Shown here: positions 8,698-24,910 of the stretch, piece by piece
Numbering within the stretch: position 1 is the stretch's first letter
Layout of the letters: each line of letters begins with the position of its first letter
Assembly (NCBI GenBank): GCA_018830245.1
Contig: JAHJSW010000001.1
Coordinates: 1-36,843, forward strand
DNA length: 36,843 bases
From: Nanobdellota archaeon
GTDB taxonomy: Archaea > Nanobdellota > Nanobdellia > Pacearchaeales > GW2011-AR1
Direction: 5' to 3'
The notes under the pieces: model-generated
Told to the model about the DNA's origin: nothing
The model's database searches: none
What the model saw: only the letters and a program-made list of their open reading frames with translations
Position numbers and translations under genes: made by a program

Positions 8698-8835
8698 ATG
8701 AAAGAGAGGATTTCTGCAACAGTAGATAAAGAAACAATAGAAACAATAGAAAAAATTCTTAGAGAAGGGAGATACAGGAATAAATCTCATGTTATTGAAG
8801 ACGCAATTAAATTATTAAAAGAGAAACGAAAATGA
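8698..8835 (+). CDS. Ribbon-helix-helix (CopG/Arc-like) regulator, 45 aa (not in the ORF track)
   Basis: MKERISATVDKETIETIEKILREGRYRNKSHVIEDAIKLL; stop overlaps the next start (ATGA). Confidence 0.75.
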   Translation: MKERISATVDKETIETIEKILREGRYRNKSHVIEDAIKLLKEKRK

Positions 8836-9593
8836 AAAAGAAGAGAGGGCAGGTGACGATTTTTATAATTTTAAGCATAGTTTTAATTGGAAGTTTAATT
8901 TTATTTTTTCTTGTAAGAGAGGGAATTGTTCCTCAATTTTGGGGAGGTGGAGAGATAAATCCAGATCTTTTTCTGCAAACTTGTTTAGAAGAAAAAATAG
9001 AGAGCACTATTGATATACTTTCTTCTCAGGGAGGATATATTGAAAATTCTTTATCAAAAGAATTTGACGGAAAAAATATTTCTTATTTATGCTACAACTC
9101 TCTTAATTATTATACCTGCATAAATCAGGAACCACTTCTGATTCAACATTTAAAAAACGAGATTAAGAAAGAAATTTCTGAGGAAGTAAAAAATTGTTTT
9201 AATGAGCTATCACTTAATTTAGAAAAAGAGGCTTATACTGTTGATGCAAAATATCATGATTTCGCCATAGATCTAGAATCTAAAAAAGTTATTGTAAAAA
9301 TAAATGGCGAAATGACTCTTACAAAAAATAGTGAGACCTTGAAACATGATGATTTTATTATTGTAGTCAAGAGTAGTTTTTATGATTTAGCGATAATTGC
9401 TCAGGAAATCATAAGCCAAGAATCAGAATTTTGTAATTTCAATTATCTTGGATATATGTTGCTTCATCCAGAAATAAGTATAGAATTAAATAATCTTGGA
9501 GACCAGACAAGTATTTACCATCTTCAACATAGAAAAACTGATGAAGATTTTTGGTTTGCTCTGAGAACTTGCGCACTTCCCGGAGGGATATAG
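8832..9593 (+). CDS. Class III signal-peptide (type IV pilin-like) protein, copy A
   Basis: MKKKRG|QVTIFIIL hydrophobic N-terminus; paralog of 13266..14069 (SSQGG, I.YLCY, C..Q.P.L.QH). Confidence 0.75.
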   Translation: MKKKRGQVTIFIILSIVLIGSLILFFLVREGIVPQFWGGGEINPDLFLQTCLEEKIESTIDILSSQGGYIENSLSKEFDGKNISYLCYNSLNYYTCINQEPLLIQHLKNEIKKEISEEVKNCFNELSLNLEKEAYTVDAKYHDFAIDLESKKVIVKINGEMTLTKNSETLKHDDFIIVVKSSFYDLAIIAQEIISQESEFCNFNYLGYMLLHPEISIELNNLGDQTSIYHLQHRKTDEDFWFALRTCALPGGI

Positions 9594-12500
9594 ATGAAAT
9601 CAAAAAATAGAAAAATAGCGATTGCAGAAATTTTAATATTAGTACTGGGAATTTTTTCATTTTCCTACTTATTATATCAGACTATGCCTCTTATTTCTGC
9701 ACAAGATATTTTAGGATGTTGTACTGAAACAAATACTGGAGCAAAATGCCAAGACCTAGTGCTGGGAAGTGATGAATGTAAAGAAGCTCTGCTTCCAAGT
9801 CAGTGCAAAGACACTTCAAATTGTAAACTTGGGTGTTGTATTGATGAAGAAGAGGGTTTGTGTTCTGAAAAATCTCCAAAAGACCTATGTACTTCTGATG
9901 GAGGAACTTGGAAAGACAATGAAGTATGCAATATTATTGAGTGCCAAAAAGGATGTTGTGTTTTAGGAACTCAGACAAATTATGTAACAGATGCTAGATG
10001 TGGGAAACTCGCAGGATTTTACGGGATTGAAAAAGATTTTCGACAACAAATAAAAACAGAATTAGAATGTGTTTTGCTGGCAGAATCCCAAGAACACGGA
10101 GCGTGTATATTGGGAGAAGATGTTTGCAAGTTTACTACTCAAGGAGATTGTGTAAATAAAGAAGGAGAGTTTCACAAAGATGTTTTATGTTCTAATCCTT
10201 ATCTAGAAACTTCTTGTGAACAGCAAGTTTCTGTAGGCTGTGTTGAAGGATTAGATGAAATTTACTGGTTTGACTCGTGTGGAAATAGAGAGAATATTTA
10301 TAATGCAGATAAAAATGTTTCTTGGAATAATGGAGAGTTATTACCAAAAGATCAGAGCTGCAATCCTACTTCTGCAAATATTGAGTCAGAAACTTGTGGG
10401 AACTGCAATTATTTTTTAGGGAGTAAGTGTGGTAGTTCTGAAGAGATAAAAATAAAGGATGGAAATTTTATTTGCCAGGATTTAAATTGTTATAATACTT
10501 ATGATGGAAGTGACAGAGTAAATGGAGAGAGCTGGTGCATATATGATGCTTCTATTGGAACAGGAACAGATGTTGTTGGAAGTCGACACTGGAAACATAT
10601 GTGTATTGACGGAAAAGAAGTTGTAGAACCGTGCGCAGATTATAGGCAGGAAATCTGTGCAGAAGAAATAGTAGAAATTTCAACTGATAAAAAAGTTAGT
10701 ATGTCTAATTGCATTATCAATGAATGGAGATCTTGTTTTTCATATAATGAACTATCAGCAGATAAAATGGTCAAGAAGTGCTCGGAAAATCAGCACTGTT
10801 ATTTAAAATCATTATGGCACCCTGGTGGAAAAGTTGCGCAAGGCCCAATTCAGACATGTCTTCCAGAATATCCTCCAGGACTTATATTTTGGGGAGATCA
10901 GAGTTCTGCTTCACAAATTTGCAGTCCAGCCTCACAAAATTTAGATGTTACTGCAGTTAAAGAATGTGGATTTTTAGGAATAAGTGAGGAGTGGGTATAT
11001 GTTGCAAATGATGTTGCAAGAACAGAAACCTGGTCCCAGATAATGAATAAGTGGTGCACTAATCTTGGAGATTGTGGTGCTTATGTTAATATTGAAGGAG
11101 AGGTTACAACAGGAGGATATAGCACAAGTGGGGTAGCTCGTGCTCTTTCTGCAAGTTACTTATCCCAGTTAGCAAGTTTTAATATTCCAAACCCTGATGC
11201 AAAAGGAAAAATTTCTGGAATAGTTCCTATTGAAGAAGAGGAAGATACTAGCTGGACTACTCTTATAGGATATGGTGTATTAGGTCAATGGCTTTATGAA
11301 GGAATTGCAGGATTAGATGTTTTTGCAGGTGCGGTAATGAATCCAATGGGGACCTGGAGTGAAGCAGGATTTCTTAATTTTATGACTCAACCATATTTTG
11401 CTGCGCCAGCAGCAATTGTTGCATCATATTTTGCAGGACAGATGATTGGACAGTTAATGGGGCTTGATGAGGCATCTGCTCAGCAAGTTGGAATTGCGGG
11501 TGCTATTGGGGCTATTGGCTCTGTTGCTTATACTTCTTTTTTTGGAGGTGGTTTTAACGCAGTAACTTTTGGAACAACATTTATGTGGGGAATTATTGTT
11601 GCTGTTGTTGTAGCAATCTGGATGCAATTAAAGGGATGTGGAGAACAGGCAAAATGGAAAGCAGGATTTACCTGCAGAGCGTGGGATCCTCCGTCAGGAG
11701 GAAAGGATTGTGAAAAATGTAATGAAGGTGAAAAAGATTCTGATGGAAATTTATTTCACGAATGCTCAGAATATAGATGTAAAAGTTTAGGTGCTGCTTG
11801 TGAATTTATTAATGCTGGAACAACAGACCCTAAATGTATCTGGAGTAGGCCAAATGATGCGGCTTCTCCAGTAATCAGTCCGTGGCAAGAAAGTTTATCA
11901 AAAGGGTATAATTTTGAGACAAGTGCTTCTTGCCCGTCAACATGCTCAAATAAAGTAATTAGAAATAATGAATCTGGTTGTTTAGAAGCATATAAATCAA
12001 TTACTTTTGGGATACAAACAGATGAATATGCTAAATGTAAATTTGATACTTCAAATAAACAATATGAAGATATGGTTAATTCATTTACAGGATTATATAC
12101 AGAAAATCATTCAACAGTAATTATGTCCCCAGGAATAATCACTCTTGAAGCAGAATTAGAAAGATTAAGAAAGCAATTTAAAAATGAGACAGGAGAGCCA
12201 CTTGGACAAGAGTATATTGATAATATTATAAATAAATCAATTGATGGAACATTAAGATTATATATAAAATGTAAAGATGTAAATGGAAATACAAATTCTG
12301 CTCCTTTGTTAGTTGAGATGTGCTTAGACCCTGAACCAGACACAACTCCTCCACATGTTGTTTCAATTAATCCAAATAATAATCGAAAAATAGCATACGG
12401 GTTAACAGAACAAGATATTTTAATGTATGTAAATGAACCTGCAGAGTGCAAATATTCTTCTACAGATAAAATTTATGATGAAATGGAAAATTCTTTTGAC

Positions 12501-13220
12501 TGCCAGACAGAATTAAGTGAAGGAACAATAAAAGGATGGTTATGTGCAACTAAACTTACAAATCTGCAAAATGAAAATTCTTACTATATCAGATGCAAAG
12601 ATAAACCATATAGTGTGGAACAAGAGAGAAATGCAAATTTAGAGAGTTATAATTATGTAATTTCTAAATCATTGAGTGAACTTTCAATTAATTCGATTTC
12701 TCCAGATGGAGATGTTGGAGGGGGATTTGAACCAATTTCAGTTAGTCTTGAAGTAAAAACCTCTGGAGGAGCAAATAATGGCGTCTCTATTTGTTATTAT
12801 AAATGGGGGAATAACTGGATTTCTTTTATGGAGACAGATTCAAAATCCCATAAACAACAATTAAGTTTAGGAAAAGGAAGTTATTCAGTAGAAATAAAAT
12901 GTGTTGATGAAGCAGAGAATGAAGCTTATGGAGAAACTAGTTTTCATTTAAACTTAGATACTTCTCCACCAAGTGTAGCGAGAGCATATAAAGAAGGGAA
13001 TAAATTAATTGTAATCACAGATGAAAAAGCAGAATGTTTTTATCATCCTAATAAATGTTATTTTGATATAGAAAATGCAACTTTAATGACCACTGTATTT
13101 TCAAGAGAGCATAGTGCAGAATGGATTACTGGACAAGTGTATCATATAAAATGCATAGATATTTGGGGGAATAAAGCTGACGGATGCAGTATGAAAATAT
13201 TTCCGAATTCATTAGTTTAA
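9594..13220 (+). CDS. Giant Cys-rich surface protein (1208 aa), fused form
   Basis: Pilin-like N-terminus RK|IAIAEIL; GCC repeats; central Gly/Ala hydrophobic segment; C-terminal Ig-like repeats (DTTPP, NEPAECK, RCKD). Confidence 0.8.
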   Translation: MKSKNRKIAIAEILILVLGIFSFSYLLYQTMPLISAQDILGCCTETNTGAKCQDLVLGSDECKEALLPSQCKDTSNCKLGCCIDEEEGLCSEKSPKDLCTSDGGTWKDNEVCNIIECQKGCCVLGTQTNYVTDARCGKLAGFYGIEKDFRQQIKTELECVLLAESQEHGACILGEDVCKFTTQGDCVNKEGEFHKDVLCSNPYLETSCEQQVSVGCVEGLDEIYWFDSCGNRENIYNADKNVSWNNGELLPKDQSCNPTSANIESETCGNCNYFLGSKCGSSEEIKIKDGNFICQDLNCYNTYDGSDRVNGESWCIYDASIGTGTDVVGSRHWKHMCIDGKEVVEPCADYRQEICAEEIVEISTDKKVSMSNCIINEWRSCFSYNELSADKMVKKCSENQHCYLKSLWHPGGKVAQGPIQTCLPEYPPGLIFWGDQSSASQICSPASQNLDVTAVKECGFLGISEEWVYVANDVARTETWSQIMNKWCTNLGDCGAYVNIEGEVTTGGYSTSGVARALSASYLSQLASFNIPNPDAKGKISGIVPIEEEEDTSWTTLIGYGVLGQWLYEGIAGLDVFAGAVMNPMGTWSEAGFLNFMTQPYFAAPAAIVASYFAGQMIGQLMGLDEASAQQVGIAGAIGAIGSVAYTSFFGGGFNAVTFGTTFMWGIIVAVVVAIWMQLKGCGEQAKWKAGFTCRAWDPPSGGKDCEKCNEGEKDSDGNLFHECSEYRCKSLGAACEFINAGTTDPKCIWSRPNDAASPVISPWQESLSKGYNFETSASCPSTCSNKVIRNNESGCLEAYKSITFGIQTDEYAKCKFDTSNKQYEDMVNSFTGLYTENHSTVIMSPGIITLEAELERLRKQFKNETGEPLGQEYIDNIINKSIDGTLRLYIKCKDVNGNTNSAPLLVEMCLDPEPDTTPPHVVSINPNNNRKIAYGLTEQDILMYVNEPAECKYSSTDKIYDEMENSFDCQTELSEGTIKGWLCATKLTNLQNENSYYIRCKDKPYSVEQERNANLESYNYVISKSLSELSINSISPDGDVGGGFEPISVSLEVKTSGGANNGVSICYYKWGNNWISFMETDSKSHKQQLSLGKGSYSVEIKCVDEAENEAYGETSFHLNLDTSPPSVARAYKEGNKLIVITDEKAECFYHPNKCYFDIENATLMTTVFSREHSAEWITGQVYHIKCIDIWGNKADGCSMKIFPNSLV

Positions 13221-13265
13221 CAAAAATTTTTAAACAGAAATACCGTATAAAAAAAAGGAGACAAT

Positions 13266-14069
13266 ATGAAAAAAAGAGGTGAGGACGCGAATAATAGAAA
13301 AGGTCAGATTACAATTTTTATAATTCTTGCAATAGTTGTTGTAGTTCTTGGAATTGTTTTATACTTTTTTTATCCTAAAATAATCTCAAACTTTGGATTT
13401 GAATCAAATCCCTCATTATATATGGAGTCCTGCATTAAAGAAGACCTAACAAATACTGTTGAAAAAATATCTTCTCAGGGAGGAAGTTTAGAACCAGAAC
13501 ACTATATTATGTATCAAGGAAACAAAATAGAATATCTTTGTTATACTGAAGAATATTATACTACTTGCATAATGCAACAACCAATGTTAAAACAGCATAT
13601 TGAAAAAGAAGTTCAAGAAGCAATTAAAAGTAAGGTAAGTGAATGCTTTGATCTTTTAAAAGAAGATTATGAGAAAAAAGGATATTCTGTGAATTTAAAA
13701 AAAGGAGAGATTAGTATTGAACTCCTCCCTCAAAGAATTATTGCTTTGTTTAATTCTACATTGACTATTAAAAAAGAAGAATCTCAAAAATATGATTCAA
13801 TTAAAATTGTTTTAAATAATAATCTTTATGAGTTAGTGAGTATTGCCAATAGTATCTTAAACTGGGAGGCTCGTTACGGAGATTCTGAAACAACAACATA
13901 TATGGATTATTATCATGATCTAAAAGTTGAGAAAAAGAAACAATCAGAAGGCTCAACAATTTATATTTTAACAGATAGAACAAGTGAAAATAAATTTCAG
14001 TTTGCATCAAGGAGTGTTGCATGGCCTCCAGGATATGGAATTGATAAAGTTTATATTGAAAATGCGTAA
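13266..14069 (+). CDS. Class III signal-peptide (type IV pilin-like) protein, copy B
   Basis: RKG|QITIFIILAIVVVV; AAGGAG SD upstream; paralog of 8832..9593. Confidence 0.75.
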   Translation: MKKRGEDANNRKGQITIFIILAIVVVVLGIVLYFFYPKIISNFGFESNPSLYMESCIKEDLTNTVEKISSQGGSLEPEHYIMYQGNKIEYLCYTEEYYTTCIMQQPMLKQHIEKEVQEAIKSKVSECFDLLKEDYEKKGYSVNLKKGEISIELLPQRIIALFNSTLTIKKEESQKYDSIKIVLNNNLYELVSIANSILNWEARYGDSETTTYMDYYHDLKVEKKKQSEGSTIYILTDRTSENKFQFASRSVAWPPGYGIDKVYIENA

Positions 14070-15918
14070 AAAAAATATATTTATTTTAGGACTTGGAATT
14101 TTCTTACTAGGAGTTCTGCCATTTATTTCAGCAATAGAAATTTCTTATTGTTGTGAAAAAACAGTTGATGGTGCGTGGTGCCAGAATGCTCCTGAAGAAA
14201 GATGCGATGATGATTTTAGAAAAGTCCCTGCTTCTTGTGATGCTACTTCTTATTGTAAACTTGGATGTTGTTATGACAGTCAGGAAGGAACTTGCATGGA
14301 AAATACTCCTCAAAAAGTTTGTGATGGCCCTGAAGAAAACGACCCTCACGGAATTTGGTCTGGAGATAGTACTGAATGTGATATTCCCCAGTGTAGTTTA
14401 GGGTGTTGTTTAATTGGAGATCAGGCAGCGTTTGTAACACAAACTAGATGTAAAAGACTCTCTTCATTATATGGATTAGAAATTAATTTTAGAACAGATC
14501 TTTCTAATGAGGTTTTGTGCATCCAAAGTGCGACATCAGAAGTAAAAGGGGCTTGTGTTTTTGAGAAAGAGTATGAAAAAACTTGTAAATTTATCTCTAA
14601 AAGAGAATGTTTAGAAATGAGTTCTGGTAATGAGACAGGAGAGTTTCACGAAGGTTATTTATGTTCTGCTGAAAATCTAGGAACAAATTGCGGACCTACA
14701 GAAAAAACAGTTTGTGTTGAAGAGTATGATGAAGTTTATTTTGTTGATAGTTGTGGGAACTTAGCAAATATTTATGATGCGTCTAAAATAAAAAATAAAA
14801 ATTACTGGTCAAAAATTGTAGGAAAAGCAGAAAGTTGTGGATTTGGTCAGTCAAATGCAGATTCTTCTAGTTGTGGAAATTGTGATTATTATCTTGGAAG
14901 CAGTTGTAAGGCATATAAAGTTGGGCAGGATAAAGTTCGTCCAAGTTATGGGAATAATCTCTGCAGGGACTTAGGTTGTAAGTATGATGGAGAAGACTAT
15001 GAACACGGAGAGACTTGGTGTATTTATGAAAATCAGGTAGGAAAAGGAAGAGATGTTGTTGGAAGCAGACATATAAGAGCGATTTGTTATAATGGGGATG
15101 TTTTAACAGAACCTTGTGCAGATTTCAGACAGGAAATTTGTCTTCAAGAAGAAATAGAAACTACAAAAGGAGAGTTTTTTAGCTCAGCTTGTGTTGTTAA
15201 TCGATGGCAAGATTGTGTTGCTCAGACAAATAGAAAAAATTGTGAAAATATAGATAAAAGAGAGTGCACATGGCTAACTGACGGGGGTTTAATGTCGCAC
15301 CAGTCATATGAAGCAGAGGAAGGAGATTTAACAGATTCTAGTTCAGATAGTAGTCCAAGTTCATCAAGCAGTACTACAACTGCAGATACAACTACTAATT
15401 CAAATTCCACAATTACTGGAGGAGTGATTACTGGCGCATTTATTGGAGGGATTTTTGGAGGAAGTGATGATTCTGAGGAAGAGTATAGTGATGCTCCAAC
15501 AATAATTAAAGGTGCTTGTGTTCCAAGTTATCCTCCTGGTTTAGAATTTTGGTCAGATGGAGAGACCAGGCAGGTTTGTTCTCAGGCAGATTTTGTCTGT
15601 TATGTTGAATTTGCAAAAAAAGGCTATTTCTTTTCACATGAAGCAGAGTGTGTAAAAAATTGTGAGTGCTTGTCTAATTCATGGGTAGCAAAACAAAATA
15701 GAATTTGTAATGGTCTTGGGGATTGTGGTGCTTATGTTAATATAGAAAAGAAATTCACTTCAGGAGGAATGAGTGTAAAGAAAGGAACTGTTCCAAGTAA
15801 CTTTAGTGAAGGATTAATAGAAGGATTATACAAGGATTTATTTGTAGGAATCTTTGAGGATGTTTTTGAAGGAGTATTTGATATTGGAGATATTTTTGGA
15901 GGAGGTCTTGGGTTTTAG
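14062..15918 (+). CDS. Cys-rich secreted protein, paralog of the N-terminal half of the 1208-aa protein
   Basis: Start reassigned to ATG 14062 (MRKKNIFILGLG signal peptide). Shares CKLGCC, DSCGN..NIY.A, CGNC.Y.LGS.C, GE.WCIY, DVVGSRH and LGDCGAYVNIE with 9594..13220. Confidence 0.8.
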   Translation: MRKKNIFILGLGIFLLGVLPFISAIEISYCCEKTVDGAWCQNAPEERCDDDFRKVPASCDATSYCKLGCCYDSQEGTCMENTPQKVCDGPEENDPHGIWSGDSTECDIPQCSLGCCLIGDQAAFVTQTRCKRLSSLYGLEINFRTDLSNEVLCIQSATSEVKGACVFEKEYEKTCKFISKRECLEMSSGNETGEFHEGYLCSAENLGTNCGPTEKTVCVEEYDEVYFVDSCGNLANIYDASKIKNKNYWSKIVGKAESCGFGQSNADSSSCGNCDYYLGSSCKAYKVGQDKVRPSYGNNLCRDLGCKYDGEDYEHGETWCIYENQVGKGRDVVGSRHIRAICYNGDVLTEPCADFRQEICLQEEIETTKGEFFSSACVVNRWQDCVAQTNRKNCENIDKRECTWLTDGGLMSHQSYEAEEGDLTDSSSDSSPSSSSSTTTADTTTNSNSTITGGVITGAFIGGIFGGSDDSEEEYSDAPTIIKGACVPSYPPGLEFWSDGETRQVCSQADFVCYVEFAKKGYFFSHEAECVKNCECLSNSWVAKQNRICNGLGDCGAYVNIEKKFTSGGMSVKKGTVPSNFSEGLIEGLYKDLFVGIFEDVFEGVFDIGDIFGGGLGF

Positions 15919-15975
15919 TGATACTACTTCATAGTAACATTTAAATATGATGGAAACAACAAAAAAATAAGGAAA

Positions 15976-16557
15976 ATGGGATTAAGACAAAAACTGATAG
16001 CAGGGGCAGGAGCATGTACATTAGCTGTAACTACGACTTTGTTGTCTGGATGCGGAAGTATGACCCAAAGAGAGAGAACTGAAATACTAGGACTCGCAGC
16101 ATTTGGACTTCCAGGATATGCTCTTGCAAGGTTATCTAATCAAGAGCAGGAAGAACAGCAAAGAAAACCTCAAAAACAAGAAGAACGTGCTTTTTTTACA
16201 TATGGGTTTGATAAAGACTTAAATGGAGATGGGATTTTAAGTCCAGATGAATTTTTTGAGATGGGGAAAAAAATATTTGACTTACGTACTGAAATGATGA
16301 GTGTAGGATTTTTTAAAGAAGATTATGAAGGACCTGTTCTTTTTAGAGCATTCACAAAATCAGGAAAAGAGATTGGAAGAAACATAAGAATAAATTCTAA
16401 AGGAAGATGCTTAGTTACATATACTGGTCCAGGAACAGAAGGGGATGATTTTATGGAGAAGATTAAAAAACAAGGTCCAGGAAAATACGATGTTACAGCT
16501 ACTATTCTAAAGAATGGAGAAACATATAAATTAGAATTAGAGATAACTAACAAATAA
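15976..16557 (+). CDS. Putative lipoprotein with EF-hand-like loop
   Basis: Lipobox-like LLSG|C; DKDLNGDGILSPDEF Dx[DN]xDG loop; TTTAAATA upstream. Confidence 0.6.
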   Translation: MGLRQKLIAGAGACTLAVTTTLLSGCGSMTQRERTEILGLAAFGLPGYALARLSNQEQEEQQRKPQKQEERAFFTYGFDKDLNGDGILSPDEFFEMGKKIFDLRTEMMSVGFFKEDYEGPVLFRAFTKSGKEIGRNIRINSKGRCLVTYTGPGTEGDDFMEKIKKQGPGKYDVTATILKNGETYKLELEITNK

Positions 16558-16560
16558 AAA

Positions 16561-18576
16561 ATGTACTTAAAAAAGAGGTTTGATAAAAGAGGTAAGATTG
16601 CAATTTTAGAGATATTTATTCTCTTGCTTGGAATTATCGCAATTTCTTATGCAATTGGAAGTGAGATTAAACTTATAAAAGCAAGAGCTAAGGTCCCCCC
16701 AGCTACAGAAAATCCTACTAAGAACCCTCCACTAGGAGATCTCTCTGGAGGAGCAGTTCAAAAAGGAGCGGGAGGAGCAGAAGCTGCTACAGGAACAGCA
16801 ACCACAATTATGAATGGGTTTTTATGGGCAACAATAATTATCACTGCGCTAAAAATGTTTGGGATTACTCTCGGAGATAGCAAGTATACTACAAAAGCAT
16901 TAAGAGCAGGGGCGTTCTGGGGAGTAATGTCATATTATATTACCGACGCTATTGACCCAACATGGGCTGCTGAAAAAGGATGGTGGGATGTTTCTCAAGG
17001 CGCATGGGTTGGAATAGGTGTTGGACTGCTTATTTTTGAAGCAACATATAAAAAAGTAAAAGTTATTCCTGTTACATTTAACTGTCTTCCGTGGGAAGCG
17101 CCGACAGGAGGAGGAGATTGTGAGAAATGCAACGAAAGAGAAGTATGCAGTGAGTATATGTGTAAAAGTTTGGGACAGGCATGTGAATTAATTAACAAAG
17201 GAACAGAAGAAGAAGCATGTGCATGGGTAAATCCTCATGATGTAACACCTCCAATAATTGAGACCTGGGAAGATGCATTACTTCCTGATTACAAATATTC
17301 TCCTGACAATACAATTTCTCCACCTGATAGAGGAGTAAAAGTAATAAACACTAAATCAACAACAGACTGTGCAAAAGCATTCACCCCACTTTCCTTTGGA
17401 ATCACTCTTGATGAACCAGGGAAATGTAAAATAGATTATATAAGAAAAGGCAGTTTTGATGAGATGGCTTATTTATTTGGAGAGAGTGGCACACTAAAAT
17501 ACGAACATACTCAGACAATGAGTCTTCCTGGACCAGAAGCATTTAAAGAAGAAAATATCACACTTCAAAATGATGGAGAGTATGAATTATATGTAAGATG
17601 CCAGGATGCAAATGGAAATTATAATACTGCGAATTTTGTATTTAGATATTGTGTAGAAAAAGGGCCTGATACAACCCCTCCTCTGATTGTTAACACAAAT
17701 TTACTGAACAATATGCCTATTGCATATAATCAAACTTCTCTTGAGATTGAAGTTTATGTAAATGAACCTGCAGAGTGTAAATGGAGTCATAGAGACCAAG
17801 ATTATGATAAGATGGAAGAACAGATGGTATGTTCTTCTAGTATATTTGAAATGAATGCGCAAATGCTTTATGAATGCTCAACAAAACTTACTGGAATAGT
17901 AAGTAAAGAAAAAAATTCATTTTACTTTAGATGCAAAGATAAACCAAGAGCGACAAGTGATAGAAATACTAACACAGAATCATATGTTTTTAATGTGCTT
18001 GGAACACAACCACTAGTAATAAGCACTGTAGAACCAAATAATACACTTGTAAAAGATTCTACAGAGTCGGTAAAAGTAACTATTAAAGTTGAAACAGCTG
18101 CAGGGCATGAAGATGGAAAATCAATCTGCTATTATAGTGAGACAGATGATGAGGAAGATTATATTATGTTTTATAAAACTCAGTCACATGTACACGCCCA
18201 AGAATTATGGTTATCTGAAGGAAGGTATGATTATTTTATAAAATGCGTTGATCTTGGAGGGAATTCAGATAAAAGAAGCATAAATTTTGATGTTGAATCA
18301 GATATCAGTGCTCCTTCTGTAGTAAGAGTTTATCATGAAGAATCATACTTAAAATTAATTACAAATGAAAAAGCAGAGTGTGTTTATGATACAATGAATT
18401 GTAATTATCAGTTTGATGACGGGACATCAATCTCAGTAATAAATGAGGTTAATCACTATACTGACTGGGATACTAAAAAAGAATTTTTTATAAAATGCCA
18501 AGACGAATATAGAAACCAACCTCTTCCAAACGAATGCAGTATAATTGTAAGACCATTAGAACTTGGGTTTCGATAG
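16561..18576 (+). CDS. Pilin-like-signal protein, paralog of the C-terminal half of the 1208-aa protein
   Basis: KRG|KIAILEIFILL; shares F.C..W..P.GG.DCEKCN, CSEY.CKSLG.ACE, YVNEPAECK and RCKDKP with 9594..13220. Confidence 0.8.
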   Translation: MYLKKRFDKRGKIAILEIFILLLGIIAISYAIGSEIKLIKARAKVPPATENPTKNPPLGDLSGGAVQKGAGGAEAATGTATTIMNGFLWATIIITALKMFGITLGDSKYTTKALRAGAFWGVMSYYITDAIDPTWAAEKGWWDVSQGAWVGIGVGLLIFEATYKKVKVIPVTFNCLPWEAPTGGGDCEKCNEREVCSEYMCKSLGQACELINKGTEEEACAWVNPHDVTPPIIETWEDALLPDYKYSPDNTISPPDRGVKVINTKSTTDCAKAFTPLSFGITLDEPGKCKIDYIRKGSFDEMAYLFGESGTLKYEHTQTMSLPGPEAFKEENITLQNDGEYELYVRCQDANGNYNTANFVFRYCVEKGPDTTPPLIVNTNLLNNMPIAYNQTSLEIEVYVNEPAECKWSHRDQDYDKMEEQMVCSSSIFEMNAQMLYECSTKLTGIVSKEKNSFYFRCKDKPRATSDRNTNTESYVFNVLGTQPLVISTVEPNNTLVKDSTESVKVTIKVETAAGHEDGKSICYYSETDDEEDYIMFYKTQSHVHAQELWLSEGRYDYFIKCVDLGGNSDKRSINFDVESDISAPSVVRVYHEESYLKLITNEKAECVYDTMNCNYQFDDGTSISVINEVNHYTDWDTKKEFFIKCQDEYRNQPLPNECSIIVRPLELGFR

Positions 18577-18612
18577 AGGGAGATAGGGATAATAACTTTC
18601 TTTTTTGTTTCT

Positions 18613-18978
18613 TTATTTAACAAATTCAACATTTTTAAATTTCTCAAATTCCTTATCTCCAGTGAGAAAAAGAAGATTATTTTCTAATGCATAGGTATAA
18701 CCAATGCAATCTGCATAAGATAGATTCTTTTTTTTATTTTTAATTCTAAATTTTACTGCCTTTTTTAAGACCTTGTCATTAGCATTAATAACAAAATACC
18801 TAAATTTTTCATAGATTTCATCAGCAATTTTTTCTCCATACTCCCGTAAAGCAAACCAATAAATTTCGACTAAATTAAAAACAGTCATTGCAAAAGGTTC
18901 TTGAGAGTAACGAGCATACATAGGATTTCCATCAAGAAGTTCAATTACTGCATAGCTATCAAAGAAATATCCTACCAT
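18613..18978 (-). CDS. vapC: VapC-family PIN-domain toxin
   Basis: YFFDSYA, E, LSYADC and LTGDKEF acidic PIN motifs; 121 aa. Confidence 0.9.
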   Translation of the reverse strand: MVGYFFDSYAVIELLDGNPMYARYSQEPFAMTVFNLVEIYWFALREYGEKIADEIYEKFRYFVINANDKVLKKAVKFRIKNKKKNLSYADCIGYTYALENNLLFLTGDKEFEKFKNVEFVK

Positions 18979-19184
18979 CCTTTTCTCATTTCGTCTTTTA
19001 TTTTTTGAGCCCTCTGCTTAGATTTGCGAGGAAACATTCCAAAAAAGTCTCTTGCAAGGAGATTTTTCTTAATTTCTATTGTAATTTCATGGTTTTCTTT
19101 AATTTTATGTGCCTCTACAAATATCTTAGGAAGAATAATTGCCAGTGAATTCCCCCATTTTCTTGGTCTTGTCTTTATTTCCAT
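18972..19184 (-). CDS. vapB: AbrB/MazE-type antitoxin
   Basis: RKWGNSLAIILPK motif; overlaps the start of vapC. Confidence 0.85.
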   Translation of the reverse strand: MEIKTRPRKWGNSLAIILPKIFVEAHKIKENHEITIEIKKNLLARDFFGMFPRKSKQRAQKIKDEMRKGW

Positions 19185-19337
19185 GATACATAATGATACT
19201 TTATGATATTTAAATGTTTTGATTTTGCAATTTTAAGAAAACCCAAAATTTAGATGTAAAATAAATATGATAAATATTAGAGGAACACAACTTTTTCTTT
19301 TATAAAACCTTATAAATAATCTTTTTTTAATTCAAGT

Positions 19338-19835
19338 ATGAAAAAGAGTGGCCAGATGAAGTTATCTTTTGGTATGATTGTTTCAATTATTCTAATAATT
19401 ATATTTATTGCTTTTGCTTTTTTTGCTATTAAAAAATTTCTTGAAATTCAGGAAGCTGTAAAAATTGGAAAATTCAAAGATAATTTACAGGCAGATGTTG
19501 ATAAAATGTGGGGAGGTCAGCAGGGTTCTCAAGAAAAAGAATATTTTCTTCCAAAAAAAATACAGTATGTTTGTTTTGTAAATTATTTATCTTCAAAAAA
19601 AGGAGAGAACCAAGAATTATATAGTAAATTAAAACAAGTTTATTATGGTGAGGAAAATATGATTTTTTATCCTTTAGGATCTGCACAAAGTTTAGAAGCA
19701 GTAGAATTAAAACATTTAAACATGGAAAAAATAACTAGTGATGAAAACCCGTATTGTATTGCTCCTAAAAATGGAAAAGTTCAGATGAAGATACAAAAAA
19801 AATATGAAGAGGCACTTGTTGAAATAACTCGATAA
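19338..19835 (+). CDS. Class III signal-peptide (pilin-like) protein
   Basis: MKKSG|QMKLSFGMIVSIILII; TTATAAAT about 20 nt upstream. Confidence 0.75.
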   Translation: MKKSGQMKLSFGMIVSIILIIIFIAFAFFAIKKFLEIQEAVKIGKFKDNLQADVDKMWGGQQGSQEKEYFLPKKIQYVCFVNYLSSKKGENQELYSKLKQVYYGEENMIFYPLGSAQSLEAVELKHLNMEKITSDENPYCIAPKNGKVQMKIQKKYEEALVEITR

Positions 19836-19836
19836 A

Positions 19837-20763
19837 ATGTTAGAAAAAAAAGGTTATCTAGAACTCCCTTTTGCCTGGCTTTTTGCAATTGTTGCAGGAG
19901 CATTTATCTTATTTCTTGCAATTTTTTTCGCAACAAAACTAATCAATCTTGAACAAACCAGTATTGATGCTCAGACAGGAAAAGAGATTGGGATATTGCT
20001 TAATCCTCTTGAAACAAGTTTTGAGGCAGGGAAAACAACTTCATTTATAATGCCAGTTGATACAAGAATCTACAATAAATGCAATAATAAAGGAATTTTT
20101 GGGAGACAGATAATCCAAATCTCTCAAAAAAGTTTTAATAAATGGACAGAAACAGATTTAGAAGTTGGTTTCTCAAATAAATACATATTTTCAGAAAATT
20201 ATACAGAAGGGAAGAAATTTTATTTATTTTCCAAACCATTTGAATTCCCCTTTAAAATCTCTGATTTAATTTATATGACTTCTTCAAATAAAATTTACTG
20301 CTTTAAAGATCCTCCTTTAAACATAGAAGAGGAATTAGCTTCATTGAATCAAGGAAATATTAGAATAAATAATTGTTCAGGGGAAAGTATTAAGATTTGC
20401 TTTTCAGGAGGATCTGAATGTGAGGTAGATGTAAACTATGAATATAAATGGGTAATTAGAAATTCAGAAAAAGTATATTTTGAAAAAGATGCACTGATGT
20501 ATGCTGCGATTTTTTCAGATAAGAAAACTTATGAGTGCCAGTTAAAGAGATTAATGCAAAGAGTAAATCAATTAGCGCTATTATATCAGGATAAAGCAGA
20601 TTTTGTTTCAAAAGCAGGATGCGAATCAAATCTAAAACAAGATTTATTAATGTTAAGTAATTCAGCGTCTGATTTTGAAGATTCGTCAAACCTTGGAGTG
20701 CTTGCTATAAATGTTGAATCAATTAAAGACAAAAATAATTTTGCAGATTGTGAGTTATGGTAA
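19837..20763 (+). CDS. Class III signal-peptide-like protein
   Basis: KKG|YLELPFAWLFAIVAG followed by a soluble Cys-containing domain. Confidence 0.7.
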   Translation: MLEKKGYLELPFAWLFAIVAGAFILFLAIFFATKLINLEQTSIDAQTGKEIGILLNPLETSFEAGKTTSFIMPVDTRIYNKCNNKGIFGRQIIQISQKSFNKWTETDLEVGFSNKYIFSENYTEGKKFYLFSKPFEFPFKISDLIYMTSSNKIYCFKDPPLNIEEELASLNQGNIRINNCSGESIKICFSGGSECEVDVNYEYKWVIRNSEKVYFEKDALMYAAIFSDKKTYECQLKRLMQRVNQLALLYQDKADFVSKAGCESNLKQDLLMLSNSASDFEDSSNLGVLAINVESIKDKNNFADCELW

Positions 20764-20764
20764 G

Positions 20765-21283
20765 ATGAAAAATAGAAAAGCACAACTAAAAATAAAGCAA
20801 ATGACATTTATGTTAATTGCTGTCACGCTATTTTTTGCACTAGTTGGAATGTTTGTCTTGGTTATTAAATTTTCAGATATACGAGAAGCTGCAACTGAAC
20901 TTGAAGAGAGGAATGCCATGTTACTTGTTTCAAAGCTTGCTAACTCCCCTGAATTTTCTTGTGGAGGAGCATTTGACACACCTCGGTTAAATTGCATAGA
21001 TGCTGATAAAGTAATGATTTTAAGGCAACACATAGAAAAATACAATGATTTTTGGGGGGTTTCGAATATAGAGATAAGAAAAATTTATCCTGCAGCAAAC
21101 TCTGAAATCTTGTGCACTCTTGAGAATTATCCTAATTGTAATATCATCAGATTACGTTCAAAAGAGATTATTGGAGCAGATTTATCAAATTTTATATCTT
21201 TATGCAGAAAAGAACCTTATGAAGGAGATTATTACAATAAATGTGAACTAGCCAGAATTATGGTGAGTTATGAAGAAAAATGA
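20765..21283 (+). CDS. Class III signal-peptide (pilin-like) protein
   Basis: Start reassigned to ATG 20765: MKNRKA|QLKIKQMTFMLIAV. Confidence 0.7.
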   Translation: MKNRKAQLKIKQMTFMLIAVTLFFALVGMFVLVIKFSDIREAATELEERNAMLLVSKLANSPEFSCGGAFDTPRLNCIDADKVMILRQHIEKYNDFWGVSNIEIRKIYPAANSEILCTLENYPNCNIIRLRSKEIIGADLSNFISLCRKEPYEGDYYNKCELARIMVSYEEK

Positions 21284-21768
21284 GAACAAAAAATAAAAAA
21301 GCACAAGAAGAAATGATTGGTTTTGCGCTAATAATAATCATAGTTGCGGTGATTTTATTAATTTTCTTGGGATTTTCCTTGCGAACTCATCAAAAAGAAC
21401 TTGTAGAGAGTTATGAAGTAGACAGCTTTATTCAATCTTTTTTACAATATACTAGTGATTGCGCAGAAGGTCATGAACCAAATTATGCTTCAATTCAAAA
21501 ACTTATTTTTTTATGCAATAGGAAAGAGAGGTGCACAGATGAAAGAGATAGTTGTGAAGTTTTGAACACTACATTAACTCAAATATTAGAAAAAAGCTGG
21601 GAAATTGTAGATAGACCTACTAAGGGATATGAACTAAATATTAGTTCAGGTAATAAAGATATTATTTTGATTAAAACAGGGAATTTTACTAGAAATTATA
21701 AAGGATCTCAACAAAATTTGATAATTGGGGGAAACCCTTCAGATATAATCTTTGTAGCTTATTATTAA
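21280..21768 (+). CDS. Class III signal-peptide (pilin-like) protein
   Basis: KKA|QEEMIGFALIIIIV; ATGA overlap with the previous gene. Confidence 0.75.
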   Translation: MRTKNKKAQEEMIGFALIIIIVAVILLIFLGFSLRTHQKELVESYEVDSFIQSFLQYTSDCAEGHEPNYASIQKLIFLCNRKERCTDERDSCEVLNTTLTQILEKSWEIVDRPTKGYELNISSGNKDIILIKTGNFTRNYKGSQQNLIIGGNPSDIIFVAYY

Positions 21769-22133
21769 ACTTTTAAATGAATAGTAATAGTATCTACAAT
21801 AATCTCTGGTTTGTGCCGTATTCTATTCTTAGTTTTTTCCTCAATAAGTTCAATAAACCCAAATCTCTCTAAAAGCTTAATATCATCATTTACAGACTTA
21901 AATCCTCGATTTAATTTTTTCGCCAAATCATATATAGATTTTGGATTTTGAGTCTTAATTGTATGCAAAATACGTGCTTTTTCATTGCTTAAAAGCTGCC
22001 TCAAGGCCAAAACTCCAGAAAAATCATAGTCTTTTTTAGAGATTCCTGATTTTTTGAAAATAGAAAATGTTCCTTTTGATTCTTTAATTGTAATTTCTCG
22101 TGTCTTTTTCTTAACCATCTTGTTTTTATACAC
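21765..22133 (-). CDS. Winged-HTH transcriptional regulator (HVO_A0114-like); start may be ATG 22118
   Basis: P.SIYDLAKKLNRGFKSVNDDIKLLERFGFIEL HTH pattern. Confidence 0.8.
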   Translation of the reverse strand: MYKNKMVKKKTREITIKESKGTFSIFKKSGISKKDYDFSGVLALRQLLSNEKARILHTIKTQNPKSIYDLAKKLNRGFKSVNDDIKLLERFGFIELIEEKTKNRIRHKPEIIVDTITIHLKV

Positions 22134-22345
22134 AGAGTTTTATCATATAGAGATATAAAAATATATCTTTAATATATCTATTTTATTAATATATATGTTA
22201 TTTAATATTACCCTATATTAATAAACCTTTTGGAAAGATAATAAGTTTAGTAGTGTATTCCAATTTAGTAATAACACAACATTTATAAACAAAACCATCA
22301 AAAATAGTGTTTTTAGTAAAGAGCGTTGAAGAAGAAACCGTAATC

Positions 22346-22353
22346 TTTTTAAA
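22346..22353 (+). promoter_or_regulatory. Putative TATA box of the S-layer gene
   Basis: TTTTTAAA with a purine-rich BRE-like run upstream, about 22 nt before the first leader hairpin. Confidence 0.45.
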
Positions 22354-22371
22354 CAAAATCGATTTTTGAGA

Positions 22372-22496
22372 TATACCCGCAAGGGTTCTATAGGGAATTA
22401 AATCATGCTCGTCTCAATACAATGGTCTCCCCTATGACTATTAGATTGAGGAGGGAGTTGTCATAGACAACAATTATCATACAAATGAAAGGAGGT
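22372..22496 (+). ncRNA. Structured 5' leader of the S-layer mRNA (candidate cis-regulatory RNA)
   Basis: GCAA-tetraloop hairpin, nested stem-loop with possible pseudoknot, GTTGTC-ATA-GACAAC hairpin, then GGAGGT SD. Confidence 0.5.
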
Positions 22497-22510
22497 TGAA
22501 AAGAAAAGAA

Positions 22511-24910
22511 ATGAAATTTAGTTTTAAAAAAATATCTGCTATAGCAACTAGTGCATTAATGTTAGGTATGAGTGCTGGTGTCGCTGTTGCAGCAAGCTAT
22601 CCAGAACCTTTTATTTCTGGAGGAAGTGCAAATGTAGCTATTGTTTATGGTACAGGGGCAGGGGTTTCTGCTCTAGATCTTGTTCAAGCCGGAAACATAC
22701 AGTCTAATTTGCAATCTAATCTTGGTTCAGCAGGAACTACTGTAACTAGTGGTTCTGTCACTGGAGGAGATAGTGTTAAATTCGAAAAATCTTCAACAAA
22801 ATTCCAATTAGGAAAGGGGATTACAGATATTATCTCAACTTCTATTACTGATGATAGTCCTGGAGAAGGACTTAAAGTTCTTTTAGCTGATGGGAAATAT
22901 GTGGATGATGATAATGACGAAAAAGACTATACTCAAAAGATTGATATGGCTAACTTAACATTAGGTATGTTTGATGATGATGACTATAAACCAGACACCC
23001 CTACAATTGGCTTTAGAGTTACTAGCGCATCTCAGGTATTAAATTATACCTTAGATTTTACTGATGAACCAGAGTGGGCAGACTTAACATCAACAAATAT
23101 TGAAATTATGGGAAAAACATATTTCATATTGAGTGTTACAGCAAACACAACAATAAATCTTCTTGACTCAGCAAATACTGCAACAGTATCAGAAGGTGAA
23201 ACCGCAAGTGTTACTGTAGAAGGAACAACCTATGAAGTTTCTATCCAGTATATTAGTTCTACAGAAGTAAAACTAACAATTAATGGAGAGAATACAAATA
23301 GTCTGCAAGAGTCGCATACTCAAAAATTGAAGAATGGGGCTTATGTTGGTATCAAAGACATTATGCATGATTCAAAAACAGGAAGTGTGAGTAGTGTAGA
23401 GTTTAGTATTGGAACAGGAAAATTAATTCTTAAGGATGCTACTGATGTTGAGATTAACGATGCATCTGTGTCTAATATGAAAACATATATTACTACAACA
23501 AGTTCGTCTACTCCTACAATTAGCAAAATTGTAATTGAATGGAAAGCAGATGATGAATTATTTATAGCGCCAGACAGTGAGGTTACAATGCCAGGGTTTG
23601 GAGCAGTAAAATTGTCCTTTAGTGGGATGTTATACCCTAAAGAAGAAGTAATTACTGTTAAAGGAGGAAGTACTACTTATGCCGTACTTGAAAATTTCCC
23701 TATGAAAGATGGTTCAGTAGATATAAACATTCTTTACGGAAATAGTAGTGATTGGACAGGAATTGGAAAAGATTCTACTCATCTACTAAGAACAGATGTT
23801 GATTCAGACATAACATTTGACAAAGACACTGATGAATATTTTGTAGCTTCTTTTAATGATGGAAGTAATGCAGAATCTTATTTAATGAGGGCTACTGATT
23901 TCGGGCAGATTGGAACTACTACTGCAAACAGAACTGATATTCAGTATCGGAAAGATGGTGTTTGGACAACAATAAAAGACGATGCTAAATTAGCAGATGT
24001 TGTCACAATCGGGAATGTCCAATTAACTATTGGAGCAATTAAGAGATCTGCAGAAAATACTGTTGTCCTTACAGCAGGAACAAGTTGTAACTTTCATACA
24101 GCTTATTCAAAAGAAGGCTTAGAAGTTTTCTTACCATATGCTGCTGATGCTGGACCAGCTACTGCTAGACCAGGTGCGCTTAACACAACTAATGTAACTC
24201 ATGGAGGAACTGCTACCACTTTTGACTTAATCTTTAGTGAAGAAGACAAAAATGGAAATATTGGTGATGGAGGAAACATTACTGCAGTTCTTGGATGGAA
24301 TTCTGCCACAACTAAAGAAGCTTATGTAAGCGATGTTGGAAACGAATCAGTTACATTTGCTGAAGATGGAGACAGCACTAAAAAATGGCTAAGTTATAAA
24401 TATGGTGCACTTGCTTCTAAATTGTTGTGGGATAAAACAGGAGACCAGTATGAACTCCAGATAACATATCATGGAGATGAATCATATGGAGAAGTTTACT
24501 TAACTGCTCCTCTTGCAACTGTTTCAGCAGGAACAACTTCAACAACTACTGCAACTCAACTTGGAGATGTATTAGTAAAAGATAGTGAAGTTAGCTCTGT
24601 AAGTTCAAAGAACTTAATTATTGTTGGTGGAAGCTGTATTAATTCAGCTGCTGCTAAAGTATTAGGTGGAACTTATTGTGGTGCAGGATTCACAGAAGCA
24701 ACTGGTGTCGGAGCAGGAGAATTCCTAATCCAGAGTGTAGGCGATGCTTATTCAACTGGAAAAATCGCATTAGTTGTTGCTGGTTATGAAGCTGCAGACA
24801 CTGTAAATGCTGCTACATATCTAAGAACTCAAACAGTTGACACAACTGCAGGTAAGAAATACAAAGGTACTTCATCTACTAGTGCAGAACTTGTTACAAC
24901 AACAGTGTAA
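22511..24910 (+). CDS. S-layer protein (Methanococcus-type N- and C-terminal domains)
   Basis: MKFSFKKISAIA signal; AIVYG.GA...D...A..I at the N-terminus; NLIIVGG.CINS.A and LVVAG..AADT..AA..L at the C-terminus; many NxS/T sequons. Confidence 0.85.
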   Translation: MKFSFKKISAIATSALMLGMSAGVAVAASYPEPFISGGSANVAIVYGTGAGVSALDLVQAGNIQSNLQSNLGSAGTTVTSGSVTGGDSVKFEKSSTKFQLGKGITDIISTSITDDSPGEGLKVLLADGKYVDDDNDEKDYTQKIDMANLTLGMFDDDDYKPDTPTIGFRVTSASQVLNYTLDFTDEPEWADLTSTNIEIMGKTYFILSVTANTTINLLDSANTATVSEGETASVTVEGTTYEVSIQYISSTEVKLTINGENTNSLQESHTQKLKNGAYVGIKDIMHDSKTGSVSSVEFSIGTGKLILKDATDVEINDASVSNMKTYITTTSSSTPTISKIVIEWKADDELFIAPDSEVTMPGFGAVKLSFSGMLYPKEEVITVKGGSTTYAVLENFPMKDGSVDINILYGNSSDWTGIGKDSTHLLRTDVDSDITFDKDTDEYFVASFNDGSNAESYLMRATDFGQIGTTTANRTDIQYRKDGVWTTIKDDAKLADVVTIGNVQLTIGAIKRSAENTVVLTAGTSCNFHTAYSKEGLEVFLPYAADAGPATARPGALNTTNVTHGGTATTFDLIFSEEDKNGNIGDGGNITAVLGWNSATTKEAYVSDVGNESVTFAEDGDSTKKWLSYKYGALASKLLWDKTGDQYELQITYHGDESYGEVYLTAPLATVSAGTTSTTTATQLGDVLVKDSEVSSVSSKNLIIVGGSCINSAAAKVLGGTYCGAGFTEATGVGAGEFLIQSVGDAYSTGKIALVVAGYEAADTVNAATYLRTQTVDTTAGKKYKGTSSTSAELVTTTV

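Follow-up and report, generated by a model that had tools for sequence, protein, structure and literature searches.

The 36,843-nucleotide contig C21 of a Nanobdellota archaeon (GenBank JAHJSW010000001.1), analysed here over its whole length and referred to as the window, holds in region 8698-21768 a cluster of genes that we propose encodes a display complex for giant adhesin-like proteins, based in the membrane and related to type IV filaments, and represents a core surface module of DPANN archaea of the Woesearchaeota and Pacearchaeota type; we put the probability of this reading at about one half. The source genome comprises 642 kb in 42 contigs and is estimated to be 85% complete. A first-pass annotation of the window had described the region as a cluster of eight proteins with pilin-like signals and giant Cys-rich partners beside an S-layer gene, and had suggested a minor-pilin or tip complex for contact with a host. 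Few uncultured archaea are as widespread as Woesearchaeota and Pacearchaeota, and for the making of their envelope or their contact with other cells the cluster provides a near-universal candidate set consisting of five pilin-like families, giant proteins with immunoglobulin (Ig)-like stalks, a predicted pairing of g10 with g11, and a fusion of carrier and giant. The genes of the cluster and the S-layer gene that follows them are listed here, with a slash at the putative cleavage site of prepilin-like signals.

8832..9593 (+): g1, 253 residues, MKKKRG/QVTIF; class III signal and a disulfide-bearing alpha/beta domain of no known fold
9594..13220 (+): g2, 1208 residues, 66 Cys, RK/IAIAE; giant
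13266..14069 (+): g3, 267 residues, NRKG/QITIF; paralogue of g1
14062..15918 (+): g4, about 618 residues, 45 Cys; matches the N-terminal half of g2, its ATG at 14062 overlapping the end of g3
15976..16557 (+): g5, 193 residues, lipobox-like LLSGC; orphan between the halves of the split giant
16561..18576 (+): g6, 671 residues, 21 Cys, KRG/KIAILE; matches the C-terminal half of g2
19338..19835 (+): g9, 165 residues, KKSG/QMKLSF; pilin-signal protein
19837..20763 (+): g10, 308 residues, EKKG/YLELPFAW; pilin-signal-like protein
20711..21283 (+): g11, pilin-signal protein; probable start at 20765 (MKNRKA/QLKIKQ), giving 172 residues
21280..21768 (+): g12, 162 residues, NKKA/QEEMIGF; pilin-signal protein, with a 4-bp overlap with g11
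22496..24910 (+): S-layer protein gene; S_layer_C PF05124, E 1.1e-9, 38.6 bits against a cut-off of 23.9

BLAST comparisons within the cluster resolve the region into two paralogous modules, each consisting of a small protein and a giant, followed by the four-gene block g9-g12. The small proteins g1 and g3 share 34% identity over 249 residues (E 4e-48), and g2 corresponds to g4 and g6 taken together, g4 being 41% identical to g2 residues 13-383 and g6 36% identical to residues 692-1207. Neither these paralogies nor g4 itself, the N-terminal half of a split giant, figured in the eight-protein inventory of the first-pass annotation, whose eight quoted N-termini are all found in the sequence and all lie on the plus strand. 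The Cys richness that it reported for the large proteins is borne out by the counts (66 of 1208 residues in g2, 45 in g4, 21 of 671 in g6), and the S_layer_C match of 22496-24910 confirms that an S-layer gene lies next to the cluster. The series is interrupted, however, by g5 and by a minus-strand VapC/AbrB-MazE gene pair, and the coordinate 8698 that it took as the start of the cluster belongs to a 45-residue ORF (open reading frame) of the RHH_1/CopG type that overlaps the start of g1. Searches of Pfam and NCBIfam returned no family for any of the ten cluster proteins, bar a sub-threshold Big_13 match in g6.

Part of the evidence for the proposed complex comes from the N-termini of the small proteins. 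As the criterion for a class III (prepilin-type) signal we took a short basic N-terminus with K/R at position -2 and G/A(/S) at -1, followed by some 20 hydrophobic residues. Such a signal is found in g1, g3, g9, g11 and g12, all canonical, and in near-canonical form in g10, which shows most of its features; the two giants that had also been credited with pilin-like signals, g2 and g6, lack the cleavage motif and any credible cleavage site, the sequence of g6 placing a Lys at +1 (KRG/KIAILE). Alignments of each family were built from database matches and syntenic loci, and positions were counted around the putative cleavage site.

g1 family (45 sequences): K/R at -2 in 43, G/A/S at -1 in 45, Q at +1 in 45; six conserved Cys
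g9 family (22 sequences): K/R at -2 in 19, G/A at -1 in 22, Q at +1 in 17; two conserved Cys
g10 family (24 sequences): K/R at -2 in 20, G/A at -1 in 19, +1 variable; F at +6 in 23, W/Y at +8 in 23
g11 family (22 sequences): K/R at -2 in 21, G/A/S at -1 in 22, Q at +1 in 17; E/Q at +6 in 22
g12 family (22 sequences): K/R at -2 in 22, G/A/S at -1 in 22, Q at +1 in 22; E/D at +3 in 22, G at +6 in 22

Conservation of this kind exceeds the needs of a plain membrane anchor and has the pattern of class III signals, and the alignments support the view that the signals of the small proteins behave as prepilin-type signals under conservation. Gln at +1 is linked to substrates of the EppA type, and the +1 Gln signals of the cluster resemble those of EppA substrates, a likeness to the clade-1 (Epd) type IV pili of archaea considered further below. 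The motif is also concentrated in the region: among the 615 ORFs of at least 100 residues in the genome, nine carry the motif [KR]x?[GA]/Q ahead of a hydrophobic stretch, and five of the nine are among the region's 11 ORFs (hypergeometric P about 8e-8). Two of the four motif ORFs outside the region flank a TadC-linked ATPase gene on contig C2. A looser criterion, K/R-G/A/S plus a transmembrane segment, is satisfied by 51 of 891 ORFs genome-wide and is hence unspecific. In profile-profile comparisons the small families come out as related within their first 35-120 residues, with probabilities of 97.7% for g9-g10, 96.2% for g11-g12 and 92% for g1-g12, the last over 120 columns.

The arrangement of the genes is conserved well beyond the window. 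DNA of the window is present in groundwater metagenome runs, and homologues of its proteins occur in metagenome-assembled genomes (MAGs) of Pacearchaeota, Woesearchaeota and 'Nanoarchaeota'. We compared 29 related loci, nine from named MAGs and 20 from genomes picked by their best g1 matches. A g2-type gene is present in 28 of the 29, a g1-type gene lies directly 5' of a giant in 28 of these 28, and the number of paralogous g1-plus-giant modules per locus ranges from one to three. The split g4-plus-g6 form of the giant recurs among them. Every one of the 22 loci that extend as far as an S-layer gene shows the cluster and then the S-layer gene, with four small ORFs of the sizes of g9-g12 before the latter in 20 and three in the remaining two. 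PCNA is found 5' of the cluster in 17 loci. The synteny across Pacearchaeota and Woesearchaeota that the first-pass annotation had named as a check is thus evident, gene order being kept in 28 related loci. The g1 family itself comprises 1351 representative clusters at E<=1e-3, and its profile finds between 1 and 11 matches per genome in 240 of the 251 genomes sampled from the phylum; all genomes of this sample are labelled as the same class, and two are flagged as unpublished. Such near-universality, together with the constant position next to the S-layer gene, is as compatible with a core device of the envelope as with an organ of host contact.

The function of the g1-type proteins is suggested by their partners. 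Seven ORFs of 1088-1268 residues in six genomes, chosen for g1 matches inside long frames, carry a K-[KR]-[GAS]/Q signal and a g1 domain followed by g2-like segments equivalent to two stretches of g2, at approximately 300-520 and 560-1120. By the Rosetta-stone argument, the fusion of g1 to g2-like giants in other lineages is evidence of a physical partnership between g1 and the giant. A second kind of pairing is seen in the window's own family, where a g1-domain protein of some 620 residues is encoded 5' of a giant of 1700-2400 residues in three of three cases (loci L023 and L024, and contig C22 of the same genome). Contig C22 (L017) carries at 9027-16334 (-) a 2435-residue ORF with 64 Cys and with GDSL-lipase and SLT lytic-transglycosylase Pfam domains; directly 5' of it, at 16331-17938 (-), lies a g1-domain protein of at least 535 residues that is cut by the contig end. 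The corresponding pairs in L023 and L024 measure about 620 plus 1700-2200 residues. It is tempting to see in the g1 domain a dedicated carrier that mounts interchangeable giant effectors, namely Ig-stalk adhesins and the C22 lipase/transglycosylase giant, on a pilin-like base in the envelope, but this extension of the proposal is tentative and we think it rather unlikely to hold in full. If it were true, the cluster would be a modular attachment-and-attack platform, neither a classical pilus nor a described secretion system, and would explain how Woesearchaeota and Pacearchaeota engage other cells.

The giants have the look of surface proteins. The g2 family numbers 212 homologues of about 1200 residues, all the named ones of which are called 'hypothetical' bar one evident misnomer; in the ESM Atlas, g2 matches only unnamed Nanobdellota clusters. 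An AlphaFold2 (AF2) model of the first 1200 residues of g2 (pLDDT 80.2, pTM 0.53) places in order a helix at 3-30, a beta-rich Cys domain (about 40-530), disorder at 541-603, three helices (603-621, 626-649 and 656-679) and a run of beta-sandwiches that continues to the C-terminus. Foldseek matches this run to tandem arrays of Ig and fibronectin type III (FN3) domains only (PTP-delta, NCAM, titin, the grappling hook GhpA), which are generic stalks of the adhesion type. Many Cys are invariant in the family, and each Ig-like domain of the C-terminal half has a conserved Cys pair. The N-terminal helix of the g2 family bears Glu or Gln at position 12 in 55 of 58 sequences, together with an F-A-F-S-Y motif. 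That of g6 is similar, and g6 also contains hydrophobic helices and Ig-like domains, while the N-terminus of g4 resembles a plain signal peptide of the secretory type. By hydropathy, g2 has one strong transmembrane segment (657-675) and two weak Gly-rich ones. We note that the helices encoded at window positions 11400-11630 (g2 residues of about 600-680) are Gly-zipper-like in sequence (GIAGAIGAIGS...) and have Cys-rich domains on both sides. A non-significant profile match of the helical region to the type III translocator AopB (E 0.45) is a curiosity and not evidence.

For two members of the four-gene block, g10 and g11, modelling predicts an interaction between the soluble domains, a result that supports binding without demonstrating it. 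The proteins g9-g12 were modelled without their N-terminal helices as four chains, with g10 scored against the other three; the run used four chains and alignments made for this analysis, unlike the calibration, in which 116 of 157 solved complexes and 2 of 215 mismatched pairs attained the ipSAE mark. The ipSAE values for g10 were 0.82, 0.81 and 0.81 (median 0.81), against 0.00, 0.00 and 0.05 in the controls. The control that gave 0.05 was that in which g11 had been replaced, and the interface lies between g10 (residues 87-88, 113-114, 139-142, 245-262 and 305-308) and g11 (61-97 and 148-156); at least 79% of contacts are common to the runs, and the pLDDT of the partner is at least 83. The first-pass annotation had named as a check a multimer prediction of the small pilins plus the large proteins; for the small proteins, the score of the predicted g10-g11 interface is well above that of the best control. 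PDB profile searches with alignments of g1, g2, g9, g11 and g12 gave nothing significant. The best PDB sequence match of g9 is the type IV pilin PilE1, which at a non-significant E of 0.01 is a curiosity, and the nearest named ESM Atlas clusters of g12, DUF7287 (0.84) and DUF7288 (0.80), are leads only.

Machinery that could process and assemble such proteins is encoded elsewhere in the genome. In agreement with the first-pass annotation, contig C21 has no match to an A24 peptidase, T2SSE or T2SSF, and the genome, on other contigs, has one A24 peptidase and two secretion-ATPase systems, so that the lack of a prepilin peptidase and ATPase in the genome, which that annotation had named as counting against its proposal, is not observed. 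The single A24 peptidase lies on contig C28 (L018; PF01478 49.5 bits, and 46.8 bits for the 306-residue protein alone), and an A24 peptidase is found in 247 of the 251 sampled genomes. System A, on contig C2, consists of a 517-residue T2SSE ATPase and two TadC genes, with flanking Pilin_N-like pilins of the KRG/ISPVI type. System B, at the end of contig C6 (L047: 7885-12378), consists of a 762-residue T2SSE ATPase followed by a 725-residue protein that has some nine hydrophobic segments, matches no Pfam family and is present in 60 of 61 genomes of the class sample. In the relative G249, six pilin-like genes and an A24 peptidase come next after the System B pair, and the 5.6-kb contig C30 of the window's own genome (L016: 1-5665) carries colinear homologues of this run, with a 51-residue Flp-like ORF and seven pilin-signal genes; by this colinearity, contigs C6, C30 and C28 are probably parts of one locus. 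A search for a major pilin of some 70 residues yielded one candidate only, the 51-residue ORF of C30. Five TadC-less genomes were checked, and a g10-family match was found in all five and a T2SSE frame of 764-776 residues in four. Of the two systems, it is System B whose distribution matches that of the cluster, should a secretion ATPase serve it at all, but near-universal presence is weak evidence of partnership.

Taken together, these observations suggest how the complex might be built. The five pilin-like families (g1/g3, g9, g10, g11 and g12) would be made with their class III signals, the motif of which is visible in the sequences, and would be cleaved after [KR]-[G/A] by the single A24 prepilin peptidase. 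Their hydrophobic N-terminal helices, joined by the pilin-like and probably uncleaved helix of the giants with its conserved Glu/Gln, may form a short pilus- or pseudopilus-like base in the membrane, in which g10 and g11 would pair through their globular domains as predicted and the g1-type proteins, to judge from the gene fusions of other lineages, would act as dedicated partners or carriers of the giants. The latter may present a head rich in disulfides and a stalk of Ig-like domains at the S-layer or through it and so act as adhesins, for which a host cell, a surface or the cell's own S-layer may be the target. Assembly would fall to one of the two secretion-ATPase systems encoded elsewhere, more likely to the 762-residue ATPase and its 725-residue polytopic partner.

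A number of results weigh against this proposal. No cluster protein matched Pilin_N (PF07790) or Class_IIIsignal (PF04021) at E<=0.01; Pilin_N matched one of 22 members of the g12 family (E 0.047), and the other Pfam scans of the g11 and g12 families returned noise. This negative is weak evidence because the genome's own canonical pilins also score below the cut-off, one of them reaching only 19.3 bits against the 25.2 bits of Pilin_N. The AF2 model of g1 (pLDDT 92.9, pTM 0.81) consists of a helix of 25 residues (5-29), a low-confidence linker (30-43) and a separate alpha/beta domain, with no long alpha-1 helix packed on a sheet. Against the PDB, Foldseek gave no match to this fold at E<=1e-3 and the best Z in a wide VIA search was 6.2, under the noise level stated for the tool, and no pilin was among the structural matches from either search. 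The absence of a predicted alpha-1 packing of the pilin type, which the first-pass annotation had said would speak against it, thus comes close to applying, for g1 only. In the g2 family, only 10 of 58 sequences have G at position 7, and no G/A site is fixed. Hydrophobic helices, one strong and two or three weak, lie in the middle of the giants and probably fix them in a membrane, and the topology derived from these helices is not self-consistent: an odd number of membrane passes would place the Ig half of g2 in the cytoplasm, in conflict with its conserved Cys pairs. BLASTP searches of the fetched flanks of the 29 loci with the genome's own proteins (E<=1e-3) found no ATPase, TadC/platform protein or peptidase. 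A canonical TadC was found in 197 of the 251 genomes; the g1 domain is nevertheless present in at least 53 of the other 54, so that TadC is not required. Co-occurrence is uninformative with regard to the remaining candidates, the peptidase and System B both being near-universal. The idea of a minor-pilin or tip complex thus draws support from the signals, the g1-giant fusions and the g10-g11 prediction, but sits poorly with a g1 model that lacks a long alpha-1 helix packed on a sheet and with giants that have hydrophobic helices in mid-protein; such helices are more in keeping with a complex embedded in the membrane than with cargo carried at the end of a long pilus.

Foremost among the alternatives is that the cluster encodes a complex for anchoring or spacing the S-layer, in which membrane-anchored scaffolds with Ig-like stalks hold or organise the S-layer and the class III signals serve only processing and membrane retention. 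The place of the cluster next to the S-layer gene in all 22 loci reaching that far is suggestive of such a role, as is the presence of the g1 domain in 240 of 251 genomes, which is what would be expected of a housekeeping part of the envelope. The S-layer protein of the window has no C-terminal hydrophobic anchor in a hydropathy scan, the giants combine internal hydrophobic helices with an Ig-like stalk, g1 with its short helix and linker has the build of a tethered protein, and canonical TadC is dispensable. A precedent exists in the bindosome of Sulfolobus, whose sugar-binding proteins carry class III signals, according to the available part of PMC3047682. We nevertheless regard S-layer anchoring, the main rival of the display complex, as doubtful. 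Up to three g1-plus-giant modules in one locus and up to 11 g1-domain matches in one genome are more than such a role would lead one to expect, and g1-type genes also precede giants of a different kind, such as the 2435-residue GDSL/SLT protein of contig C22, which points to a carrier for varied effectors. The strict conservation of Gln at +1, Glu at +3 and Gly at +6 goes beyond the needs of retention, and the g1 domain was not found in 11 of the 251 genomes, which are good ones.

Alternatively, the giants may target the membrane of a partner cell, their Gly-zipper-like helices inserting there on a pilin-like stem as a bridge or translocon that provides cell-cell contact or a cytoplasmic bridge for putative episymbionts. 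The middle helices, Gly-rich and weakly hydrophobic between Cys-pair domains of extracellular appearance, are in a position that an ordinary topology cannot accommodate; the C22 giant paired with a g1-type protein bears lipase and lytic-transglycosylase domains; and the genome, at 642 kb, is small. We consider this improbable nonetheless, given that Pfam, Foldseek and PDB profile searches revealed no significant similarity to a pore former or fusogen, that no host is known for the organism, and that an ordinary polytopic anchor also fits the data, as the helix count may be misjudged next to the low-confidence stretch 541-603. The least probable reading by far is that the cluster brings together membrane and secreted proteins that share no common system and whose N-termini merely resemble prepilin signals, as could be argued from the want of any matching database family and from the unspecific nature of the loose signal criterion. 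A gene order kept in 28 loci of many families, invariant motif positions, the clustering of the motif in the region, the g1-giant fusions found elsewhere and the binding of g10 to g11, predicted with clean controls, all speak against it, and we consider it refuted by them.

As a display complex, the cluster is best compared with systems in which pilin-like proteins carry or accompany large surface proteins. Minor pilins FimU-PilVWX and a non-pilin adhesin of some 1100 residues, PilY1, form the priming and tip complex of bacterial type IVa pili. The cluster resembles this system in having four small pilin-like proteins and a very large non-pilin surface protein whose genes lie apart from those of the ATPase, platform and peptidase, and in having minor subunits predicted to bind each other (g10 and g11). 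It differs in showing no similarity of sequence or fold to PilY1 or to bacterial minor pilins, in the nature of its giants, which are Cys-rich with Ig-like stalks and hydrophobic helices, and in belonging to an archaeon with an S-layer and no outer membrane. An analogy between PilY and the large adhesins of archaea is drawn in the accessible part of PMC4858521, the 2016 census of archaeal type IV pilus loci by Makarova, Koonin and Albers. As far as that part goes, five or more minor pilin-like proteins occur in such loci together with large adhesins and S-layer-like proteins, and sets of pilins lie away from the ATPase. The closest resemblance is to the clade-1 (Epd) pili of Methanococcus, Methanothermobacter and Thermococcus, for which the same text describes five or more different 'minor pilins' with class III signals together with two large putative adhesins, and many pilin genes encoded away from the ATPase. 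The differences are considerable. Clade-1 loci as described there have two large PilY-like proteins with DUF2341, whereas g2, g4 and g6 have no DUF2341 match in a Pfam scan; the ATPase, the two TadC genes and the peptidase are not linked to the cluster, either in the window or in the 29 loci, but lie on other contigs; the giants have internal hydrophobic helices and the 250-residue g1 carrier is fused to a giant in some lineages; and the cluster is without a PF04021 or Pilin_N match.

Two further systems deserve mention. Like the cluster, the Sulfolobus bindosome (Bas), as described in the portion of PMC3047682 at hand, places class III signals on large surface proteins that do not form filaments and that stay at the envelope near the S-layer; unlike it, the cluster has neither solute-binding domains nor an ABC transporter context, consists of other families and belongs to DPANN and not to Sulfolobales. 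Modular pilins such as PilB of Streptococcus sanguinis, to go by part of PMC8179133, fuse an N-terminal module of the pilin type to a large functional, adhesive module, an arrangement reminiscent of the g1-giant fusions; the g1 module differs in not being a recognisable pilin fold, and in the window the two parts are separate genes. Host-derived nanotubes are reported from another DPANN lineage in the available text of PMC11329633, and the portion of PMC11537232 at hand held no passage on pili or S-layer. The first-pass annotation had not recognised a characterised system, and we concur: neither a characterised pilus nor any family of Pfam or NCBIfam corresponds to the cluster. Our literature search found no paper describing it, with the proviso that related arCOGs could sit in the supplementary tables of the PMC4858521 census. 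These are probably surface proteins associated with a type IV filament and built wholly from unannotated families, and the device an undescribed one. The cluster also suggests that prepilin-type signals in DPANN may serve a membrane-based display device besides ordinary pili.

The remaining features in and around the cluster are the following.

7890-8615: PCNA gene; upstream border of the cluster
8698..8835 (+): RHH_1/CopG ORF, 45 residues, its stop overlapping the start of g1; Pfam RHH_1, E 3e-7, 30.6 bits against a cut-off of 20.5
18613..19184 (-): VapC (PIN) toxin and AbrB/MazE-type antitoxin; Pfam PIN E 4e-8, MazE_antitoxin E 7e-8
21765..22133 (-): winged-helix regulator; Pfam HVO_A0114 PF25212, E 4e-16, with sub-threshold Lrs14/Sta1 matches

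To judge from its sequence, the 45-residue RHH ORF is a candidate local regulator of the cluster; a homologue lies directly 5' of the first g1-type gene in two of the 29 related loci (L028 and L029). In 11 of the 29 (including L006, L008, L010 and L027-L032) the winged-helix regulator has the same position, after the cluster and before the S-layer gene. The orphan g5, which bears a DxNxDG motif resembling a calcium loop and lies in a stretch slightly richer in GC, has no homologue in the 29 loci by BLASTP and no Pfam or NCBIfam match. Unrelated ORFs occupy the g5 site in other loci, and unrelated minus-strand ORFs the toxin-antitoxin site (L008 and L010); both are therefore regarded as insertions, and g5 is probably not part of the system.

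Two groundwater metatranscriptomes from a related study contain contigs at least 85% alike to the window that gather on the conserved 3' portion of the S-layer gene (24387-24910) and are nearly absent from the remainder of 8698-24910; being 85-95% alike, these contigs are sequences of relatives and are silent on expression of the cluster itself. No RNA dataset is listed as holding the cluster region. A scan for promoters and terminators of the bacterial type gave 67 sites against 62 expected, a result that is uninformative for an archaeon. Beyond the S-layer gene, an IS200-like Y1 transposase (25057-25575, minus strand; Y1_Tnp E 5.5e-26) lies between it and two membrane-protein genes (25659-26219 and 26222-26938), which in relatives directly follow the S-layer gene. 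On the other side of the cluster, a 443-residue primase ORF (6488-7819, minus strand) matches the Pfam families of both the small and the large subunit and thus represents a fused PriS-PriL, which is kept 5' of PCNA in related loci. Further downstream of the S-layer gene, as ordinary context, lie a 547-residue secreted protein with sub-threshold CARDB and FN3-like matches (28750-30393, minus strand) and a SepF homologue (31948-32340, minus strand; E 4e-10).

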